In this document: piece by piece, positions 2,117-58,098 of the stretch
Layout of the letters: each line of letters starts with the position of its first letter
Position numbering within the stretch: the stretch's first letter is position 1
Assembly (NCBI GenBank): GCA_016795505.1
Contig: JAEUHH010000005.1
Location: forward strand, 91,979 to 155,978
Direction: 5' to 3'
Source of the DNA: Verrucomicrobiales bacterium
GTDB lineage: Bacteria > Verrucomicrobiota > Verrucomicrobiia > Verrucomicrobiales > DEV007
DNA: 64,000 nt
Notes under the pieces: model-generated
What the model was told of the DNA's origin: nothing
Database searches by the model: none
Seen by the model: only the letters and a program-made list of their open reading frames with translations
Program-made: the position numbers and the translations under genes

Positions 2117-3454
2117 ATGGCGAACTGCGTCAGATTGGCACTGCAACGAGATCGCCCCATGTCCTCTCCCCACATCGACACCGCGCCGACGCTGCGTCCC
2201 TGCGGGTTGGCCCTGACCCCGGTGGAGGCGGCCCGCGGCCTCGCGCATCTCCCCGGATTGGTCTTTCTCGACTCATCCACCGCCGAAGCCGAGCCCTATC
2301 GCACCGATTCCCGCTTTTCCCTCGTTGCCGCCCGGCCCGTCGAGGTGCTGGAAGGCGATTTCTTCCACGCTCCCGACCGCGAGCGTCTGCGCCAGCGCCT
2401 TGCCGCCACCGGTGGCCCCGGTGACACGCCCGACTGCGGCTATCCCGCTGGCGGTGCCATCGGATGGATCGAATACGAAGGCCGGTTCCGCTTCGGCCTG
2501 TATCCCGAGGTGCTCATCTACGATCACCGGCACGAAAGCTGGCTCGAGCGCGGCGACCTGAGCCGCGCCATCGATCCCGGTGCCCCGCCCGCCGGCCCCG
2601 CGCCGCTGCCCGGCCCGTTTTTGGCCAACCAGACGCCCGACCAGTTCCAGGCTGCCGTCCGCCGCGCCCAGGAATACATCGCCGCCGGCGATATCTATCA
2701 GGTGAATCTCTCCCGCCGCCTCCGTGCCGCCTGGCCGGGTGAAAAAATGCCCCTGTTCGCCCCTCTCGACCTCTACGAGCGGCTCCGCGACGCATCCCCG
2801 GCGCCCTTTGCCGCCTACCTTGCCCTCGGCGGCGACCGGCACGTGCTGTCGTCCTCTCCCGAGCTGTTTCTCGAGATCAGCGGCAGCGCCATCCGCACCC
2901 GGCCCATCAAGGGCACCCGGCCCCGCTTTCGCGATCCCGCTGAGGACGAGCAGTCCGCCTACGACCTGCTCACCTCGCCCAAGGAAATCGCCGAACTCAT
3001 CATGATCACCGACCTCGAGCGCAACGACCTCGGGCAGATCTGCGAGTATGGCAGCGTGCGCGCCACCGACCTGCTCAAGCTCGAGCGCTACGCCCAGGTC
3101 TTTCACCTCGTCTCCACCGTCGAAGGCCAGCTCCGGCCCGGCATCGACTCCATCGAGGCCCTCGCGGCCTGCTTTCCCGGCGGCTCCATCACCGGCGCAC
3201 CCAAGCGCCGCGCCCGCGAGATCATCGCCGAGCTGGAGCCCGAGCCCCGCGGACTCTACACCGGTGCCATCGGACTGTTCGGCTACAACGGCGAGAGCCG
3301 CTTCAGCATCGCCATCCGCACCGCCCTCATCGAGCGCGACGAGATCCATTTCCACACCGGCGCCGGCATCGTCGCCGATTCCGAGCCGGAAAAGGAATAC
3401 GCCGAGACCGGTCACAAGGCCGCCGGCATCCTGCGGGCCTGCGGGGTGGGTTGA
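2117..3454 (+). CDS. pabB: aminodeoxychorismate synthase component I (chorismate-binding enzyme, PabB/TrpE family)
   Basis: Chorismate-binding signature blocks are present: GDIYQVNLSRR, PELFLEISGSAIRTRPIKGTRPR, ITDLERNDLGQICEYGSV and GGSITGAPKRRA. At about 430-445 aa it has no TrpE-type N-terminal regulatory domain, which favours PabB. An alternative start lies at 2159 (MSSPHIDT). Confidence 0.8.
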   Translation: MANCVRLALQRDRPMSSPHIDTAPTLRPCGLALTPVEAARGLAHLPGLVFLDSSTAEAEPYRTDSRFSLVAARPVEVLEGDFFHAPDRERLRQRLAATGGPGDTPDCGYPAGGAIGWIEYEGRFRFGLYPEVLIYDHRHESWLERGDLSRAIDPGAPPAGPAPLPGPFLANQTPDQFQAAVRRAQEYIAAGDIYQVNLSRRLRAAWPGEKMPLFAPLDLYERLRDASPAPFAAYLALGGDRHVLSSSPELFLEISGSAIRTRPIKGTRPRFRDPAEDEQSAYDLLTSPKEIAELIMITDLERNDLGQICEYGSVRATDLLKLERYAQVFHLVSTVEGQLRPGIDSIEALAACFPGGSITGAPKRRAREIIAELEPEPRGLYTGAIGLFGYNGESRFSIAIRTALIERDEIHFHTGAGIVADSEPEKEYAETGHKAAGILRACGVG

Positions 3455-3476
3455 TGCCCCCGATGCGTCTGCCCGA

Positions 3477-3527
3477 TTCCGATCAGACCCTGTTGGATCG
3501 GAGATGATACCCTGTTTGATCGGAAAC
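3477..3527. repeat. dispersed GATC-rich palindromic element, copy 1 (intergenic between pabB-like and GT2 genes)
   Basis: The sequence is ttccgatcagaccctgttggatcggagatgataccctgtttgatcggaaac. It is built from copies of the module ACCCTGTTKGATCGGA and its reverse complement around a central GATCGGAGATG. Confidence 0.7.
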
Positions 3528-3636
3528 CCCGCCGCGCCGGGGCGGCAGGATTTCGGCCGGCCGGCTTCAATGTCGGGTGTATCGCGGGGATTTTGCGGTA
3601 TCATGGCCCCTCCCGCCCCTTTCGAAAAAAAACCGC

Positions 3637-4890
3637 ATGCCACGACTCGCTGCCGTCATCGCCTCCTACAATCACGCGCGCTACCTGCCCGCGGCGATCG
3701 AATCCGTGCTGCGGCAGACGCGGCGGCCGGACCGCTTTCTCATCATCGACGACGGGTCGAAGGATGACTCGGTCGAAGTGATCCGCCGCTACGAAAAGGA
3801 CGGCGTGGAGCTGATCGTGCAGCCGAATGCCGGCGCCCATGCCACCTGGAACCGTTGCATCGAAACGGTGGCGCGGGACTGCGAGCTGGTGTCGATCCTG
3901 AACTCCGACGACATCTACGCGGCGGAGCGCTTCGCGAAATGCCTGCCACTTTTTGATCAGCCGGGTGCCCGCTCGGTCGTCTGCACGGGCCTGCGCATGA
4001 TCGGTCCGGACGACTCGCCGCTGGCCGCGGACGAGCCCCGCGCGCGCTGGCTGCGGGCCGCCTGGGCGCTGGGCGGCGCGCCGGTTATCACGACCTGGGA
4101 GTGGATGGCGATGGCCAACTTCGCGGTCACCAGCAGCAACATCGTCGCCCGGGCGGACTATTTGTTGGCGAACCCGTTCCGCCCCTACCGGTTCAACCAC
4201 GACTACTTTTTTCTCTCCGGCGCCGCGCTCCGTGACGAGATCGCCCTGCTCGACGAGGTGCTGCTCGACTACCGGGTGCATCCGCAGAACAACATCAACA
4301 CCAATCCCGCGCCGCTGCTGAAGGAGATGCTGCGGATGCACGTGGATCTCTACCACCACTTCGCCGCCGAGCTGGAAGCCGATGGCGCGGTGCGGGCGCG
4401 TTTTTACGACTACATGCGCGCGACTGAGCACAGCATCTCCAGCTTCCATCCGGGACTGTTCCAACTCCTGCTCGCGCGGCTGGCCGCCGGTGCCAGCGAC
4501 GAAAGCCTGGAGCAGCTCGTCGCCAGTCTCGACGAGACCCGGCTGCCGGAGCTGCATGACTATCCCAACAAGGCCCTGGTGAATGCCTGGGACGGGCAAT
4601 CGCCGCCCCAACTGGCGGTGAATCTGGCGGGAAAGTACGAAGCCGCCCGCGAGGCCCGGCGCGAGGCCGAGGCCGATCGTCAGGCGCTGCGCGATCTGGC
4701 GCGGGCGCGACGGGAGCTGCTCGATTCGAAGTGGCTGGCGCTGGGCCGCCTGTTTGGAGCGGGCCGGGAACTGAATGCCGACACCGGCAAGACGCCGGCC
4801 GAGAAGCTGGATCACCTGCGCACGGCAGCGGGCCGGTCGGCCTGGCTGCGGATGGGCCGCCGTCTGGGGGCGGGACCGCATCTGGAGTGA
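3637..4890 (+). CDS. family 2 glycosyltransferase with C-terminal coiled-coil region
   Basis: MPRLAAVIASYNHARYLPAAIESVLRQT...FLIIDDGSKDDS is the GT-A fold signature (DxD-type, GT2). The track ORF starts at 3577; the first ATG is at 3637. Confidence 0.7.
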   Translation: MPRLAAVIASYNHARYLPAAIESVLRQTRRPDRFLIIDDGSKDDSVEVIRRYEKDGVELIVQPNAGAHATWNRCIETVARDCELVSILNSDDIYAAERFAKCLPLFDQPGARSVVCTGLRMIGPDDSPLAADEPRARWLRAAWALGGAPVITTWEWMAMANFAVTSSNIVARADYLLANPFRPYRFNHDYFFLSGAALRDEIALLDEVLLDYRVHPQNNINTNPAPLLKEMLRMHVDLYHHFAAELEADGAVRARFYDYMRATEHSISSFHPGLFQLLLARLAAGASDESLEQLVASLDETRLPELHDYPNKALVNAWDGQSPPQLAVNLAGKYEAAREARREAEADRQALRDLARARRELLDSKWLALGRLFGAGRELNADTGKTPAEKLDHLRTAAGRSAWLRMGRRLGAGPHLE

Positions 4891-51976: not shown

Positions 51977-53332
51977 TCACGCCAGGATCTCGCGCACGAC
52001 ACGGCCCTTCACATCCGTGAGCCGGTAATCGCGACCACCGTGGCGGTAGGTGAGCCGCTCGTGATCGAGACCGAGCAGGTGAAGCATCGTGGCATGCAGG
52101 TCGTGGGTGTGAACCTTCCCATCCACCGCCTCGTAGCCCAGTTCGTCAGTCGCGCCGTGGATGTGGCCGGCCTTCACCCCGCCGCCGGCCATCCACATGG
52201 TGTAGCCTTTGTTGTTGTGCCCGCGTCCGTCGGTGGTGGCGTCATCCGGGGTGCGGCCGAACTCGCCGCCCCACACCACCAGAGTGTCCTGCAGCAGGCC
52301 GCGCTGGTCCAGATCCTCCAGCAGGCCGCCGATGGGTTTGTCGATCTGCGCGCAGTTGCGCGTCATGCCGCTCTGGAGTGAGCCGTGGAGATCCCATTCC
52401 AGATGACTGATCTCGATGAACCTCACACCCGCCTCGGCGAATCGGCGCGCCAGCAGGCACTGCTTGGCAAAACTCTCGCCACCCGCCCGGTCCGCTCCGT
52501 AGAGCTTCAGCGTCGCATCGCTCTCGCCGGCCAGATCCATCACCCGCGGCATTTCGCCCTGCATGCGGAAGGCCAGTTCCGCGCTCTCAATCATGCCCTC
52601 CACCCGGGGATCGGCCGTCTGGGCGAGTAGATCGCGGTTCATGCCTTGGAGCAGATCGAGTTGGTCCCGCTGCGCCGCCGCGGTGATGCGCGGGTTGGAT
52701 ACGTTGCCGAGCGTGAGTTTCGCGCCGGGAAAATTGGCGTTGCCGAGCATCGTCGCCGAACACGCCGCCGGCAGAAAGGCGCTGGAGTAGTAGCGCGCCC
52801 CACCCAGCGCCGTCAGCGGATTGATGGAAATGAAGCCCGGCAGGCTCGCATTTTCCGAACCGAGGCCGTACACCGTCCACGCGCCCATGGAGGGCCTGAC
52901 GAACTGAAAGCTGCCCGTGTGGAGTTGTTCCAGCGCCTGGGGATGGTTCTCGTTGTCCGTGTGCATGCCGCGCAGCACGCAGAGCTTGTCGGCGTGCTTG
53001 GCCGTCTCGGGCAGCAGTTCCACGATGTCGATGCCGCTCTGGCCATGCTGGTTGAACTTCCACCGCGAGCCGAGCAGCTTGGCCGCCGGATTGCTCCGGC
53101 CCGGCTGGCCCGTGCGGGCGGTGAGCTCCGGCTTGGGATCGAATGTCTCCATGTGCGAGGGACCGCCCCGCATGCAGAGAAAGATCACCCGTTTGGCTTT
53201 GGCAGGAAAATGTGGCGCCTTGACCGCGAGCGGACCGGCCTCGCGGGCGGCGCTTTCCGTGGCGAGCCCGGCAAAGGCGAGATATCCGAAGCCGGCAGAG
53301 GCTTGTTGGAGGAGTTGGCGGCGGGAGTGCAT
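51977..53332 (-). CDS. DUF1501 domain protein (Tat signal)
   Basis: The Tat-like N-terminus RRQLLQQASAGFGYLAFAG is followed by VIFLCMRGGPSHMETFDPKP and VVWGGEFGRTP. Confidence 0.85.
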   Translation of the reverse strand: MHSRRQLLQQASAGFGYLAFAGLATESAAREAGPLAVKAPHFPAKAKRVIFLCMRGGPSHMETFDPKPELTARTGQPGRSNPAAKLLGSRWKFNQHGQSGIDIVELLPETAKHADKLCVLRGMHTDNENHPQALEQLHTGSFQFVRPSMGAWTVYGLGSENASLPGFISINPLTALGGARYYSSAFLPAACSATMLGNANFPGAKLTLGNVSNPRITAAAQRDQLDLLQGMNRDLLAQTADPRVEGMIESAELAFRMQGEMPRVMDLAGESDATLKLYGADRAGGESFAKQCLLARRFAEAGVRFIEISHLEWDLHGSLQSGMTRNCAQIDKPIGGLLEDLDQRGLLQDTLVVWGGEFGRTPDDATTDGRGHNNKGYTMWMAGGGVKAGHIHGATDELGYEAVDGKVHTHDLHATMLHLLGLDHERLTYRHGGRDYRLTDVKGRVVREILA

Positions 53333-53375
53333 GGCGGAGAAATGGTAACCCCGTATCCCAGTCCCGTGAATGGCG

Positions 53376-53786
53376 CTATGGCGGCGGAAACGCCCCGGCG
53401 TGGATAAACCAAGTCCGCTCGACGACTCGCTCCGGGGTATTGAATTTCAGCAGCCGCACCGTTACCCGGCCGGTGGCTGTCAGTGGAACAATGATCGCAT
53501 TTCGCAGTTGGAAGTGATCGCTCCAACGATCCCGCCGGGGATGGAAAAGCATGCTGACTTGGTCGGTCTGCCAGTCAATCGATGCAAAGTCGCTGCCTTT
53601 GTGTTGGTTGCAGATGATGCAGCTCAAAGCCAGATTCGCTTCGATCGATTGCCCACCATGTTTGATCGCGACGATATGATCAACTTGATGGGGCTGAAAG
53701 CATAACCTCGCCGGAGCCTGGCAGTACTCGCACCGATCGCCCGCACGGCTCCAATCTCCGCAATAATGCAGGGATGTAGTCCGCGC
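53376..53786 (-). CDS. HNH endonuclease (intact catalytic motif) lacking a canonical start codon; possible pseudogene or fused/readthrough partner of the upstream small ORF
   Basis: Manual reverse-strand translation upstream of the track ORF 53376..53627 (which starts at a TTG) continues in-frame: ARTTSLHYCGDWSRAGDRCEYCQAPARLCFQPHQVDHIVAIKHGGQSIEANLALSCIICNQHKGSDF... This is a CxxC...CxxC zinc finger plus HNH (DH...N...H). There is no ATG or GTG between the in-frame TGA at 53787-53789 and the motif, and the only TTG lies inside the motif. Confidence 0.5.
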   Translation of the reverse strand, partial: ARTTSLHYCGDWSRAGDRCEYCQAPARLCFQPHQVDHIVAIKHGGQSIEANLALSCIICNQHKGSDFASIDWQTDQVSMLFHPRRDRWSDHFQLRNAIIVPLTATGRVTVRLLKFNTPERVVERTWFIHAGAFPPP

Positions 53787-54155
53787 TCATGCCGCGGCAT
53801 GATCCGCGTTGAGCTTGGCCAGGGCTTTTGCCTTGGCGATTCGAACCACATGTTCGATCCGGAGTATGCCATCCCATTCCACCTGTTCAGAGGCACTCAA
53901 TCCCCCGCTTGCTTTGCTCTTCTCCAGGAGAAAGGCCGAGCGGGTCGACAGGGCCTCGGATGGATGAATGGCGAGGATCTCCTGAGGAGACGGCATGCCA
54001 GCCAGCATCTCAGCGATGTCCAAAAAGTCACTGATCTCTCCAGATTCCGCTCTCCGCAGGTGGCGCAGGCCCGCCGTTAGGACTGCCGCGATGCCCGCCT
54101 CATCTTGGGGCAGGTAGTCGGCGCATTCGTCAGGCAGGGTAACGGTCAGCTTCAT
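53787..54155 (-). CDS. small hypothetical protein (122 aa)
   Basis: The ORF reads MKLTVTLPDECADYLPQDEAGIAAV... Its TGA stop is immediately followed, in the same frame, by the HNH endonuclease reading frame. Confidence 0.4.
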   Translation of the reverse strand: MKLTVTLPDECADYLPQDEAGIAAVLTAGLRHLRRAESGEISDFLDIAEMLAGMPSPQEILAIHPSEALSTRSAFLLEKSKASGGLSASEQVEWDGILRIEHVVRIAKAKALAKLNADHAAA

Positions 54156-54212
54156 GTTGGCACTTTTCCGCTAAATTCCCGCCGCCGCAAGGTTCCAAAA
54201 TCCCATCGTCTC

Positions 54213-56768
54213 TCACCGCACCACGCGAAACTCCGCGCTGGCGATGAGCATCTGGCAAAAGCTGGTCCAGCGCGCCTCGCGAAGCGCCTCGGGCGTGGCC
54301 GGCTCTTTCGATCCGGGGGTGGTGAGGGTCTCCTCGGGCCGGCTCACATAGGCGACGCCCCGTTGCAATTCGGCTGCCGAGGGTTCGCGGCTGTAGGCGA
54401 GCGCGTAAAGATGCCGCACCCGGGCTTCGTCGCTGGCGAAGCGGGTCTCGTCCAACACGCGCCGCGCCGCATGGGCGGCCTGCTCCATCACCCAGGGGCT
54501 GTTCATCAAAAAGAGCGCCTGTGCCGGCACGATGCTTTCCTCGCGCCGGGCCACGGTCCGGTCCGGCGGGGCAAAGTCGAACAGACTGAACATCTCCGGC
54601 AGGGTGCCGCGCACCACGGGCAGATACACGCTGCGATGGGTATCCACGATCATGTCCACCGTCAGGAATGGCTTGAAGGAATGCAGCTCCGCGTCGCGTT
54701 GCGGGTGAAACCGGCTCAGGAACGGCTCCCGCGGCGGGTAGGGATCGAGCTGTCCGCTGAAGTCGAGGATGGCATCGCGCAACACCTCGACCTCGACCGG
54801 GCGCGGCGTCATGCGCCAGAAATGGGTGTTGTCCGGATCGCGCTCCAAGTTCGCGGCATTCCCATCCGTGCTCATCCGATAGGCGCGGCTCAGCGCGATC
54901 TCGCGGATGAGCTTTTTCACCGACCAGCCTTCCTCCATGAAGCGCACCGCCAGATAGTCGAGCAGTTCGGGATGCGTCGGCGCGGCGCCCGTGACGCCGA
55001 AATCGTCCGGCGTCATCACCAGCGCGCGTCCCATCAGATGCTGCCATACCCGGTTCACCATCACGCGGGCGGTGAGGGGATGGCTGCGATGGGTGAGCCA
55101 CTGGGCCAGTTCCAACCGGCCACTCTGGTTTTTCGAAGGCGGCGACGCACCGGGAAGGTTGACGACCTGGAGAAAGCCGCGCGGGACGGGATCGCCGAGG
55201 TTCGTGGGATCGCCCCGCACATGGATGCGGCTGTCGATGATCGTTTCGCGGTCGCGGGCGCCCATGGTCCAGCCCGGCTGGGGAGGTGCCGCATCCTGCA
55301 GATCGGCCACGCCTTTTTCAAGCACGGTGATTTTCCGGTTCCAGTCCTCGATGTCGGCGAGCAACTTGTCCCTCTCGGCCTCGGCGGCGGCCTTTTCCTC
55401 CGGGGTTTTTGCGTTGTCGATCTTCAGCTTGGCGTCAGGCTGGCGACGCTGGAGGCGATAGCGGTCGCTGCGAGCCGTGTGCATCGTCAGCGTGTCGGCG
55501 TCGAGCTTTTTGTAGTAAGCCAGAGCGGCCGGTGCCAGGGTCGAGGCTTCCGGCCCGATGGCATGCCATTCGGTGTGGTGAAACATCGTTGCCTTGATGC
55601 CCCGCGGCCCGTAGCCATAGAGCGGCAACGTGCTGCGCAGGATGCCGGCCAGGGCGTAGTAGTCCGCCGTCGGGATCGGGTCGAATTTGTGGTCGTGGCA
55701 GCGCGCGCAGGCGACCGACAGCCCCATCACGCCGCGGCCGATGGTCTCGATCTGCTCGTCCACGACATCCATCCAGTAGAGGTCTTGCTTTTGTTCCTCG
55801 TAGGCCTTCGCTCCGAGGGCGAGGAAGGCCGTGGCCGTGAGCCGCTCGTCGCGCTGGGCCGCATCGCGAGCCGGCATCAGGTCGCCGGCGATCTGCTCGC
55901 GCAAAAATTCGTCGTAGGGCTTGTCGGCATTGAACGATGCGATCACGTAGTCCCGGTAGCGCCACGCGTGGTAGAAAATCACGTTCCGATCACGACCGTT
56001 GCTGTCCGCATAACGCGCCACATCCAGCCAATGCCGTCCCCAGCGCTCACCAAAGTGGGGAGACTCCAGCAGGCGGTCGATAGCCTCGTCGAGAGCGTCT
56101 GCCGTCGATCCCGCGGCCAGAAAAGCGGCCCGATCTTCCGGCGTCGGAGGCAGGCCGGTCAAATCGAGGTGCAGCCGGCGGAGCAGCGCCTCGGGATCGG
56201 CTTCGGTATTGGGCGCCAGCCCGGCGGCCTCGAGTTTCGCGAGGACGAAGCGATCAATCGCTCCGGCCGGCCACGCGGCATCCCGCACCGCCGGCTCGGC
56301 GGGCAACCGGGGCGGGATGAGGGACCAGAATTGCCGGCCCGCCTCGAGGCTCATGCCTGGCTTTTTCGCCGCCGGAGTGGGGCTTCCGTCGCGCGGATCG
56401 GCCGCCCCGTCCCGAATCCATCGCTCAAAGTCGGCGATCACGGCCGCAGCGAGTTTTTCCTCCTTCGGCGGCATGGCGAGGTCCTTTGCGTCATGTCGCA
56501 GGGCCCGCAGCAGCAGGCTCTTTGCAGGATCGCCCGGCACGATGGCCGGACCGGAGTCGCCGCCCCGCAGCAGTCCGTCGCGCGAGTCGAGCAGCAGGCC
56601 GGCTTTGAGCTTCCCCTGTTGTTGTGCCTCAGTGGAGTGGCAGGACTGGCATTTTCCGACCAGCACCGGCCGGATCTTGGATTCAAAAAAGGCGATCTGC
56701 TCCGGGGCCGATGCGGACACGGCGGAGGCTCCGGCGAAAAAGCCGATCAGCAGCAGGGGACGAATCAT
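54213..56768 (-). CDS. PSCyt1/PSCyt2/PSD1 (DUF1549/DUF1553) domain protein with N-terminal cytochrome-c-like CxxCH
   Basis: After the signal peptide come VGKCQSCHS (PSCyt1), the DUF1549 block RRLHLDLTGLPPTPED...FL, and a C-terminal DUF1553 region. The start is trimmed to the ATG at 56768. Confidence 0.85.
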   Translation of the reverse strand: MIRPLLLIGFFAGASAVSASAPEQIAFFESKIRPVLVGKCQSCHSTEAQQQGKLKAGLLLDSRDGLLRGGDSGPAIVPGDPAKSLLLRALRHDAKDLAMPPKEEKLAAAVIADFERWIRDGAADPRDGSPTPAAKKPGMSLEAGRQFWSLIPPRLPAEPAVRDAAWPAGAIDRFVLAKLEAAGLAPNTEADPEALLRRLHLDLTGLPPTPEDRAAFLAAGSTADALDEAIDRLLESPHFGERWGRHWLDVARYADSNGRDRNVIFYHAWRYRDYVIASFNADKPYDEFLREQIAGDLMPARDAAQRDERLTATAFLALGAKAYEEQKQDLYWMDVVDEQIETIGRGVMGLSVACARCHDHKFDPIPTADYYALAGILRSTLPLYGYGPRGIKATMFHHTEWHAIGPEASTLAPAALAYYKKLDADTLTMHTARSDRYRLQRRQPDAKLKIDNAKTPEEKAAAEAERDKLLADIEDWNRKITVLEKGVADLQDAAPPQPGWTMGARDRETIIDSRIHVRGDPTNLGDPVPRGFLQVVNLPGASPPSKNQSGRLELAQWLTHRSHPLTARVMVNRVWQHLMGRALVMTPDDFGVTGAAPTHPELLDYLAVRFMEEGWSVKKLIREIALSRAYRMSTDGNAANLERDPDNTHFWRMTPRPVEVEVLRDAILDFSGQLDPYPPREPFLSRFHPQRDAELHSFKPFLTVDMIVDTHRSVYLPVVRGTLPEMFSLFDFAPPDRTVARREESIVPAQALFLMNSPWVMEQAAHAARRVLDETRFASDEARVRHLYALAYSREPSAAELQRGVAYVSRPEETLTTPGSKEPATPEALREARWTSFCQMLIASAEFRVVR

Positions 56769-56851
56769 AAGCGGCTGGAAATGCCGCCAGAATACCCGAA
56801 TCCGATCGCAAACCAATCCCGCAACCGCGGAGGACCTCCCGGGCCGGACGG

Positions 56852-56903
56852 TTTCCGATCAAACAGGGTTGCATCGGCGATCATACCCTGTTTGATCGGA
56901 AAC
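56852..56903. repeat. dispersed GATC-rich palindromic element, copy 6 (between the UbiA-like gene stop and the PSD1-family gene start)
   Basis: The sequence is tttccgatcaaacagggttgcatcggcgatcataccctgtttgatcggaaac. Confidence 0.7.
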
Positions 56904-56933
56904 CGCGCGTCCGGCTCGACCATAGATCGCGGC

Positions 56934-57893
56934 TCAGGGCACTTGGTAGTCCGATGGCGAGTCCAGAAAGCTCCGGGCATTGAAGGTGCCCGACTTGTGC
57001 GCCCACAGCAGGCCTGCCGCGGCCACCGCTGTCACCATGGTGGAAAGGATGATCCACTTGTTTTGCAGCAGTTGCTCCGGCTCCAGCCGGGCGCCGATCT
57101 CGCTCATGGCGTGGCGGAAATACAGGGCCACGGCCACGATGATGAGCGGAAAGACAAAGACGAGATTGTTCAGCGGCGGATAGCTGCAGATCGCCCAGCC
57201 GGCACAGAAGCAAAAGAGGTTCGCATAGACGATCATGGCGATGATCAGGGAGCGCTCCGTGTAGATTTGAAACGACTTCCGATACTGCCCGCTCAGGTCC
57301 TTGTCGCCAATGAAGCGGAACTCCGAGTAGCGCTTGCCGGTCATGAGCAGTCCGCCGAAGCACCACCAGGCCAGCATGATGGACAGGGGTGGAAAGCGGT
57401 GCGTCTCCACCAGGGCGAACCAGCCGAGCCAGAGGCGGATGGGATTGTTGAACGACTCGGCGATGACGTCGAGGAAGGCGCGGTCTTTCAGTCGCACCGG
57501 CTGGATGTTGTAAACCAGGCCGCTGAGCAACAAAAGGCCCAGAGCCACCCAGTAGCCCGGATTCCGGAACCACCAGACCGCGAGTGCAAAGCCGACCACG
57601 ATGCAGACGCCCATCAGGCCCCAGAGAATCGGCACACTGACCCGTCCGGCCGGGATGGGCCGCATCTGTTTACGCGGATGCAGCTTGTCGAACGGGGCGT
57701 CGAGGATTTCGTTCAGGATGTAGTTGGCCGATGCGATGAGGCAGGCCGGCACCAGGGACAGGGCGGCCTGGAGGAGGGTGGAGCTGCCGATTTCCATGTC
57801 GAGCACCAGCACGACCGCCACCGCGTGGCCGAAGACGATGAAGATGTTCTTCAACCAGTGGTCGACGCGGGCGACTTTCAGGTAATCGATCAT
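56934..57893 (-). CDS. UbiA-family prenyltransferase (decaprenyl-phosphate phosphoribosyltransferase-like)
   Basis: MIDYLKVARVDHWLKNIFIVFG matches the N-terminus of DPPR-synthase-type UbiA enzymes. It has the aspartate-rich NEILDAPFD motif and about 8-9 TM helices. Confidence 0.7.
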   Translation of the reverse strand: MIDYLKVARVDHWLKNIFIVFGHAVAVVLVLDMEIGSSTLLQAALSLVPACLIASANYILNEILDAPFDKLHPRKQMRPIPAGRVSVPILWGLMGVCIVVGFALAVWWFRNPGYWVALGLLLLSGLVYNIQPVRLKDRAFLDVIAESFNNPIRLWLGWFALVETHRFPPLSIMLAWWCFGGLLMTGKRYSEFRFIGDKDLSGQYRKSFQIYTERSLIIAMIVYANLFCFCAGWAICSYPPLNNLVFVFPLIIVAVALYFRHAMSEIGARLEPEQLLQNKWIILSTMVTAVAAAGLLWAHKSGTFNARSFLDSPSDYQVP

Positions 57894-58026
57894 GGGCGGA
57901 TGGGGCGGGGGGCTTCACTAGCGCAGCCACCGGGGGTTCTCAACGCAATTTGTCCCGTCCCGGTGAGCCTGAGCTTGAGGACCGGGCTGCTGGATGCTAT
58001 CGATACGGGCCGTGGATGGCTTTTCT

Positions 58027-58098
58027 GTCCCCGTAGTTCAACGGATAGAACGAGAGTTTCCTAAACTTTAAATCTGGGTTCGATTCCCGGCGGGGACA
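58027..58098 (+). tRNA. tRNA-Arg (anticodon CCT)
   Basis: I folded it by hand. The acceptor stem is GTCCCCG/CGGGGAC (7 bp). The D-arm is GTTC-AACGGATA-GAAC. The anticodon arm is AGAGT-TTCCTAA-ACTTT (U33, anticodon CCT, A37). The T-arm is CTGGG-TTCGATT-CCCGG. The discriminator is A and there is no encoded CCA. Confidence 0.85.

Follow-up and report, generated by a model that had tools for sequence, protein, structure and literature searches.

The HNH (His-Me finger) DNases of colicins E7 and E9 are paired with the immunity proteins Im7 and Im9. PtuB, also an HNH protein, is found next to the PtuA ATPase in the Septu system PtuAB, and in the type I-A retrons Ec78 and Eco7. Toxin-antitoxin (TA) modules of type II consist of two small co-directional genes. 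Here we analyse a pair of genes that recalls each of these systems, in a 64,000-nt stretch of a Verrucomicrobiales bacterium genome (assembly GCA_016795505.1, contig JAEUHH010000005.1, positions 91,979 to 155,978), called hereafter the window. The pair occupies 780 bp (53376-54155) between a PSD1-family gene and a DUF1501 gene, and consists of a 122-amino-acid (aa) open reading frame (ORF), called hereafter the partner, followed by an HNH endonuclease frame without canonical start. We consider it highly probable that the two together are an inserted two-gene cassette, in which the HNH gene is a recent frameshift pseudogene, and whose presumed function is toxin-immunity or abortive defence.

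The TGA at 53789-53787, which ends the 122-aa ORF, also closes the HNH frame at its upstream end; from there the frame is open down to its stop at 53378-53376. The original prediction, made from the DNA letters of the window, had described this layout correctly: there is no ATG or GTG ahead of the motif, of the codons ATG, GTG and TTG the earliest to occur in the frame is a TTG within the motif (53627-53625), and both a CTG at 53771-53769 and an ATG at 53790-53788, in the +1 frame, are present. It had set this last ATG aside. Comparison with homologues revealed that it is the real start of the gene.

A search with the HNH sequence of the window gave 525 relatives of 130-175 aa, of which close, intact ones are P0002 (81% identical) and P0003 (76%; L and P numbers are labels of related loci or contigs and of proteins in the comparison set). 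Intact homologues are 139-147 aa long and open with MSAD(Y/H)IPAKLRRFVWSRA..CEYC, at an ATG overlapping the upstream stop (ATGA). The N-terminus of P0002 and P0003, and of distant homologues alike, reads MSAD(Y/H)(V/I)xAK(M/L)R(K/R)FVW(A/S)RA..RCEYC, and the general pattern shared by close and distant homologues is M-x-x-x-(Y/H)-(I/V)-P-x-x-L-R-R-x-V-x-x-R-A-x-x-x-C-E-Y-C. In the window, the first 12 codons from the ATG at 53790-53788 (MSADYIPALLRR) match the N-termini of P0002 and P0003 (MSADYVTAKMRK and MSADHIPAKLRR) in one frame, and the match resumes at W15 (WSRAGDRCEYC...) in another.

Alignment of the DNA showed what separates the two frames. The window reads TTG CGG AGA T-- --- TGG AGC, where its relative L008 reads TTG CGG AGG TTC GTT TGG AGC and L013 reads ATG CGG AAA TTT GTT TGG GCT. 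A 5-nt deletion in a T-rich stretch after codon 12 has thus removed codons 13 and 14 (F13 and V14) and interrupted the HNH coding sequence, so that the remainder of the gene is in the +1 frame. Translation from the ATG at 53790-53788 gives only a 36-aa peptide (MSADYIPALLRRLEPCGRSVRVLPGSGEVMLSAPSS), ending at the TGA at 53682-53680. In intact relatives the partner and HNH genes are in different frames, with the ATGA overlap; it is because of the shift caused by the deletion that the HNH frame of the window appears continuous with the upstream ORF. The features of the locus are as follows.

54213..56816, minus strand: upstream flank, gene for a PSCyt1/PSCyt2/PSD1 (DUF1549/DUF1553) protein (ORF list and Pfam)
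54156..54212, minus strand: 57-nt spacer from the PSD1 stop to the partner start, left edge of the cassette (sequence)
53787..54155, minus strand: partner gene, intact, 122 aa, its stop TGA 53789-53787 overlapping the HNH start (ORF list)
53755..53790, minus strand: ancestral HNH start ATG 53790-53788 and codons 1-12 (translation and DNA alignment)
53769..53771, minus strand: CTG used as start codon of the public 131-aa annotation (P0001 sequence; 53771..53379 is 131 codons)
53753..53755, minus strand: site of the 5-nt deletion (DNA alignments)
53680..53754, minus strand: out-of-frame stretch after the real start, to the premature TGA 53682-53680 (translation, ORF 53680..53877)
53376..53753, minus strand: remaining 125 HNH codons in the shifted frame, WSRAGDRCEYC...AFPPP, stop 53378-53376 (translation and Pfam HNH)
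53333..53375, minus strand: 43-nt spacer from the HNH stop to the DUF1501 start, right edge of the cassette (sequence)
51977..53332, minus strand: downstream flank, gene for a DUF1501 protein of 451 aa (ORF list; Pfam DUF1501, 3.5e-144)

The deletion is not confined to one assembly. Contigs assembled independently from seven sequencing runs in Logan (SRR19577258/60/62, SRR31850038, SRR12425358, SRR35280564 and SRR10547830) encode the identical 122-aa protein, and all seven are 100% identical to the window across the 780 bp, deletion included. One of them, L002 (2,551 bp), differs from the window by three single-nucleotide polymorphisms, at 54857, 54848 and 52928, all outside the cassette, and is a distinct strain with the same lesion. 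Because seven independent assemblies carry the same deletion, the frameshift is genuine and fixed, and the sequencing error that had been envisaged is excluded.

The deletion is also recent. Between the window and L013, the ratio of nonsynonymous to synonymous substitution rates (dN/dS) is 0.10 for the HNH gene and 0.12 for the partner gene. In a three-way comparison, private residue changes in the HNH protein numbered 3 in the window lineage, 12 in L013 and 19 in L008, and the catalytic and zinc residues of the window copy are all intact in the shifted frame. There is no sign of relaxed constraint, and the deletion is therefore recent relative to the divergence of the window, L013 and L008 lineages.

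As judged from these comparisons, the HNH gene is shown to be a fixed, real and evolutionarily recent frameshift pseudogene, with its native start at ATG 53790-53788. In the public annotation of this metagenome-assembled genome (MAG), it appears as P0001, an "HNH endonuclease" of 131 aa beginning MHYCGDW... at the CTG 53771-53769. This CTG is an annotation work-around that hides the frameshift, not the ancestral start, and a pseudogene flag on the record would probably be appropriate. In all of this the gene does not differ from ordinary frameshift pseudogenes with a non-canonical annotated start, in which likewise an indel close to the 5' end leaves a long frame intact but startless; here the annotation has rescued that frame with a CTG. 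Of the explanations offered by the original prediction, a genuine CTG start and reinitiation in the HNH frame do not hold as they stand, since the +1-frame ATG is where the gene begins, ahead of the deletion that breaks it. A recent pseudogene was the right idea, applied to the wrong object: what was broken is a stand-alone gene, and no fusion was involved.

The encoded nuclease matches Pfam HNH (PF01844) with an E-value of 5.2e-11 and 42.9 bits, against a cut-off of 21.4, and the catalytic residues DH, N and CNQHK are present in the shifted frame. The zinc ligands are CEYC and CIIC, both present in the window, and the zinc and catalytic columns are invariant in 64 homologues. The CGDW stretch, which had been taken for the first zinc knuckle of a complete HNH module, is an out-of-frame translation, and homologues match only from its W on. 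Across the same 64 homologues R11 is invariant and V14 nearly so. In an AlphaFold2 (AF2) model of an intact homologue (predicted local distance difference test, pLDDT, 93), the lesion maps to the N-terminal helix 8-17, where the pLDDT is ~97.

The closest described nuclease is PtuB; the PtuAB of retron-Eco7 reportedly degrades tRNA-Tyr (PMC12673091). PADLOC models of PtuB matched residues 5-117 with a best E-value of 1.9e-12, and the best whole-length matches of a fold search were PtuB chains of Septu and of type I-A retrons (9vhl_F, 9nnh_K, 8eea_G and 9n6b_F; TM-score on the query, TMq, 0.60-0.63), with Foldseek E-values that are weak, 2e-3 to 2e-2. The predicted protein is thus PtuB-like, with the same HNH core, CxxC...CxxC zinc ligands and C-terminal extension. 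It is ~70-90 aa shorter, at ~140 aa versus ~206-234 aa for the matched chains, and where PtuB has the PtuA ATPase or a retron, its partner is a helical protein of ~120 aa. Neither a PtuA ATPase nor a retron reverse transcriptase lies beside the cassette in the window or in the nine related HNH loci examined. The cassette is not a Septu system.

The partner matched nothing in Pfam, NCBIfam, PADLOC or PHROGs. Its family, as collected by a profile built from seven members, comprises at least 3,173 proteins of ~117-122 aa. Its homologues are "hypothetical" or unnamed, save two with evidently automatic labels (rubrerythrin and DUF342), and have no Pfam family. The AF2 model of the partner is a helical bundle (pLDDT 83). 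Weak Pfam matches were obtained within the family, to DUF896 in 27 of 64 members (best E-value 8.9e-05) and to RHH_5 in 3 of 64 (0.033); they may point to a distant relationship through the helical hairpin at the C-terminus, LS..E..EW..Y..LEH(L/V)VR(I/L)AKAKA. The partner is a putative immunity or antitoxin-like protein.

The distribution of the cassette was inspected in 80 partner loci from GTDB species-representative genomes. They belong to Cyanobacteria, Planctomycetota, Verrucomicrobiota, Acidobacteriota, Desulfobacterota, Chloroflexota and other phyla. The HNH gene directly downstream of the partner was in the following states.

Intact-looking: 52 loci
Fragmentary: 16 loci
None: 9 loci
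Cut by a contig end: 3 loci

An HNH gene of the same family therefore follows the partner directly in 68 of the 77 assessable loci, and the commonest junction among these 68 is the 4-nt ATGA overlap. The reverse lookup gave the same association, with the partner directly upstream in all nine HNH loci examined. Broken HNH copies other than that of the window carry nonsense codons, frameshifts or truncations; L027, for instance, has a TAA at codon 15 and a later frameshift.

Genes flanking other cassettes encode an aminotransferase and a LysM protein, PP2C and succinyl-CoA ligase, an inositol-phosphatase-like protein and an FGGY kinase, an RND pump, or GlnE. Since the flanking genes are wholly different between loci, the pair is a mobile cassette. 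At least one genome has two copies of it, on L056 and L075, both contigs from the same MAG. No second copy was found within the window by tblastn. A scan of 2.9 million viral contigs for a phage origin gave no more than six matches, all of them weak and confined to the HNH core motif.

Other small gene pairs were seen near some cassettes. In Gemmataceae (L015:5316-6208, also L016-L018), a second pair lies ~1 kb from the cassette on the opposite strand, where a gene for a 103-aa protein without Pfam family overlaps one for a 194-aa Uma2 (PF05685) putative endonuclease, again a small partner combined with a nuclease. In L057 (3392-3834), ORFs of 73 and 74 aa lie on the opposite strand beside an orphan partner with no HNH gene downstream. 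From their sequences we read these ORFs as a HicA/HicB-like TA pair, in which case the cassette would lie in a TA-rich islet. Among the contigs with the cassette, L098 bears the label "MAG: Klebsiella pneumoniae" and L030 the label "MAG: Akkermansia muciniphila". The L030 copy groups with those of Verrucomicrobiaceae. In view of where else the family occurs, at least the Klebsiella label seems to stem from an error in binning or labelling.

The site of the cassette in the window was compared with related loci. Pfam agreed with the original prediction that the flanking genes are of the PSD1 family and DUF1501 (upstream matches to PSD1, 1.5e-82, PSCyt2, 1.3e-79, and PSCyt1, 2.2e-15), and the proposal that an insertion separates them also stood. 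Directly upstream of DUF1501 there is a gene of the PSD1 family in ~70 of 80 related loci from metagenomes, and the cassette is absent from all 80. The directly adjacent pair expected in orthologous loci was found: in the closest of them (DUF1501 77-84% identical), the empty PSD1-DUF1501 spacer is mostly 12-41 nt. GC content is 0.56-0.59 in the cassette versus ~0.65-0.67 in the flanks. These comparisons support the view that PSD1 and DUF1501 are normally contiguous and that the 780-bp pair was inserted between them.

The insertion itself is not recent, because L008-L012 (~75-78% nucleotide identity) hold the cassette at the same site, with the order PSD1, 122-aa gene, intact 139-aa HNH gene (4-nt overlap) and DUF1501. 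In L008 the partner gene lies at 2861-3229 and the HNH gene at 3226-3645. L013 has the same layout over the length covered by its 1.8-kb contig. The cassette edges were searched for target-site duplications and terminal inverted repeats, and nothing convincing was found; the only candidates are 10-14 nt, GC-rich and not conserved in L008.

Other genes occupy the same spacer in sister lineages. In L107 (506-1660), a cassette-free orthologous locus, the spacer contains a 384-aa ORF that we read, on its sequence, as a DUF1016/YhcG-like PD-(D/E)xK nuclease. L114 (1600-2902) has the same gene, split by a frameshift, and L108 (3411-4004) has a 197-aa Cys-rich ORF. In this verrucomicrobial clade, different small nuclease-type genes seem to have landed repeatedly in the PSD1-DUF1501 spacer.

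In the window, the PSD1 gene (stop TGA at 54215-54213), the partner, the HNH frame and the DUF1501 gene are all co-oriented on the minus strand and separated by short spacers. No promoter-like site was predicted in the cassette region, and no terminator-like site in the cassette spacers; the sole terminator-like match falls within the partner ORF, at a rate not above that of shuffled sequence. Given these co-oriented genes and short spacers without promoter-like or terminator-like sites, DUF1501 is probably transcribed through the cassette. At its N-terminus the DUF1501 protein has the motif RRQLL, similar on our reading to a twin-arginine signal. A 1,319-aa ORF on the plus strand (54105-58064), opposite the PSD1 gene and its neighbours, is no gene but a long shadow ORF, such as DNA of ~65% GC is expected to contain.

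What could such a cassette do? We infer that it is a toxin-immunity module, resembling type II TA, or an abortive-defence module. This reading is based on the coupling of a small partner to a nuclease, on the mobility of the pair, on the genome with several copies, and on the frequent finding of a broken nuclease beside an intact partner. Repeated loss of the nuclease with retention of the partner would occur because the nuclease is the harmful component.

The events could be pictured as follows. The cassette inserted, on the minus strand, into the short spacer of the PSD1-DUF1501 pair. Gene 1 (54155..53787) would be made first, and its helical product would hold the nuclease in check. Gene 2, the PtuB-like HNH gene, translationally coupled to gene 1 through the ATGA overlap, would provide the harmful or effector part. 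The change of ..AGA TTY GTT TGG.. to ..AGA T TGG.. after codon 12 makes ribosomes that initiate at the real ATG terminate after 36 codons. In the window, decay would be at its first step and in its typical form, with the nuclease lost and the immunity gene retained.

Several traits are shared with type II TA systems: the two genes are small, point the same way and overlap by 4 nt (ATGA), the putative neutraliser coming first; their distribution over phyla and unrelated contexts is patchy; orthologues with an empty site exist; at least one genome has two copies; and the nuclease is often broken beside an intact partner. One difference is that the partner has no antitoxin DNA-binding domain recognised by Pfam or NCBIfam (RHH, ribbon-helix-helix; HTH, helix-turn-helix; AbrB), RHH_5 giving only the weak matches mentioned above. 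Colicins E7 and E9 also have an HNH nuclease encoded beside the gene for a small all-helical protein, and the colicin-Im pair is a plausible analogy for a partner that blocks the nuclease. No described TA family, nor any other account of the partner-HNH pair, was found in full-text searches of the literature. Whether the pair is a toxin-immunity or abortive-defence module that is very widespread yet undescribed, with a ~120-aa helical protein restraining a minimal HNH nuclease of PtuB-like type, is in our judgement an evenly balanced question.

The cassette might instead be a free-standing, homing-endonuclease-like selfish element, which cuts empty PSD1-DUF1501 spacers, enters them as repair copies it across, and whose nuclease decays after fixation. 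Such an element would account for the precise insertion into a spacer of ~15-40 nt between conserved co-oriented genes, with no target-site duplication or terminal repeats, and for the other nuclease-type genes found in the same spacer of sister lineages (L107/L114 and L108). A nuclease gene does lie here between two conserved genes, relatives do have the empty allele, and the frequent HNH pseudogenes fit a cycle of homing and degeneration. However, distant copies of the cassette lie between unrelated genes at many sites, which argues against a single homing site, and the family is practically absent from the 2.9 million viral contigs. The nuclease has no added DNA-recognition domain beyond the PtuB-like C-terminal extension. 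To our knowledge, a tightly coupled and conserved upstream partner is no feature of free-standing homing endonucleases. We consider homing an unlikely explanation.

Some observations weigh against a toxin-immunity cassette whose nuclease has been lost. The census of broken HNH genes is biased, the loci having been chosen for an intact partner. The opposite state was seen in L021 (2534-3091), where the HNH gene is intact (P0042, 147 aa) and the partner is split over three frames, in pieces covering profile positions 1-33, 37-81 and 78-116; these breaks may be indel errors of a long-read assembly, as the name of the contig suggests. Finally, the intact downstream frame and the conserved catalytic residues of the window copy would also fit expression by an unrecognised route.

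Such a route could be a programmed +1 frameshift at AGA-T-TGG, giving a product of 137 aa, or the CTG start used in the public annotation, giving a truncated nuclease of 131 aa. The dN/dS of 0.10 and the mere three residue changes specific to the window would then reflect a gene still in use, but a very recent lesion is equally expected to show a low dN/dS. The recoding site is not conserved: no homologue shares a frameshift at AGA-T-TGG, close relatives read straight through an uninterrupted 139-aa gene, and the lesions of other broken HNH copies differ and are scattered. There is no known slippery motif, and AGA-U allows no +1 re-pairing of the P-site tRNA, an argument modelled on the prfB and Ty1 types of +1 sites. 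The products would also be altered where the family is conserved. In that of the CTG start, out-of-frame residues would replace the segment with the invariant R11 and most of helix 8-17 (pLDDT ~97); the recoded product would keep R11 and lose F13 and the nearly invariant V14. A still functional HNH gene is thus quite improbable. As a candidate in its own right, programmed frameshifting was also sought as a break point shared among the 16 fragmentary homologues; only scattered nonsense and frameshift lesions were seen, and it was rejected.

It is very improbable that the deletion is an artefact of assembly or sequencing in an organism that really has an intact 139-aa HNH gene. The window does come from a MAG (P0001 and P0121 are named "MAG: ... 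Verrucomicrobiales bacterium"), and the HNH frame downstream of the lesion is flawless. However, the same 780 bp are found in the seven contigs of different runs, one of them from a distinguishable strain, and the deletion site is no long homopolymer.

That the 122-aa ORF and the HNH frame are one fused protein, cut by a nonsense TGA or read through, is next to impossible: this proposal of the original prediction was prompted by two ORFs in the same frame with a TGA alone between them, but that common frame is a by-product of the 5-nt deletion, the would-be linker ARTTSLHYCGD is the out-of-frame translation of the conserved HNH N-terminus, every related locus has two separate genes, usually in different frames with the 4-nt overlap, and the search for fused homologues found none of ~260 aa among the 120 HNH and 120 partner matches listed.

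The corrected annotation of this locus is therefore a frameshifted pseudogene, with no recoding, no fusion and no CTG-initiated 131-aa protein. The anomaly itself is ordinary; the cassette that surrounds it is uncharacterised yet evidently common. It is a large family of gene pairs that links a PtuB-like nuclease to a new family of small partners, and the frequency with which the nuclease is broken beside an intact partner gives, from natural history, a hint as to which component may be the harmful one.

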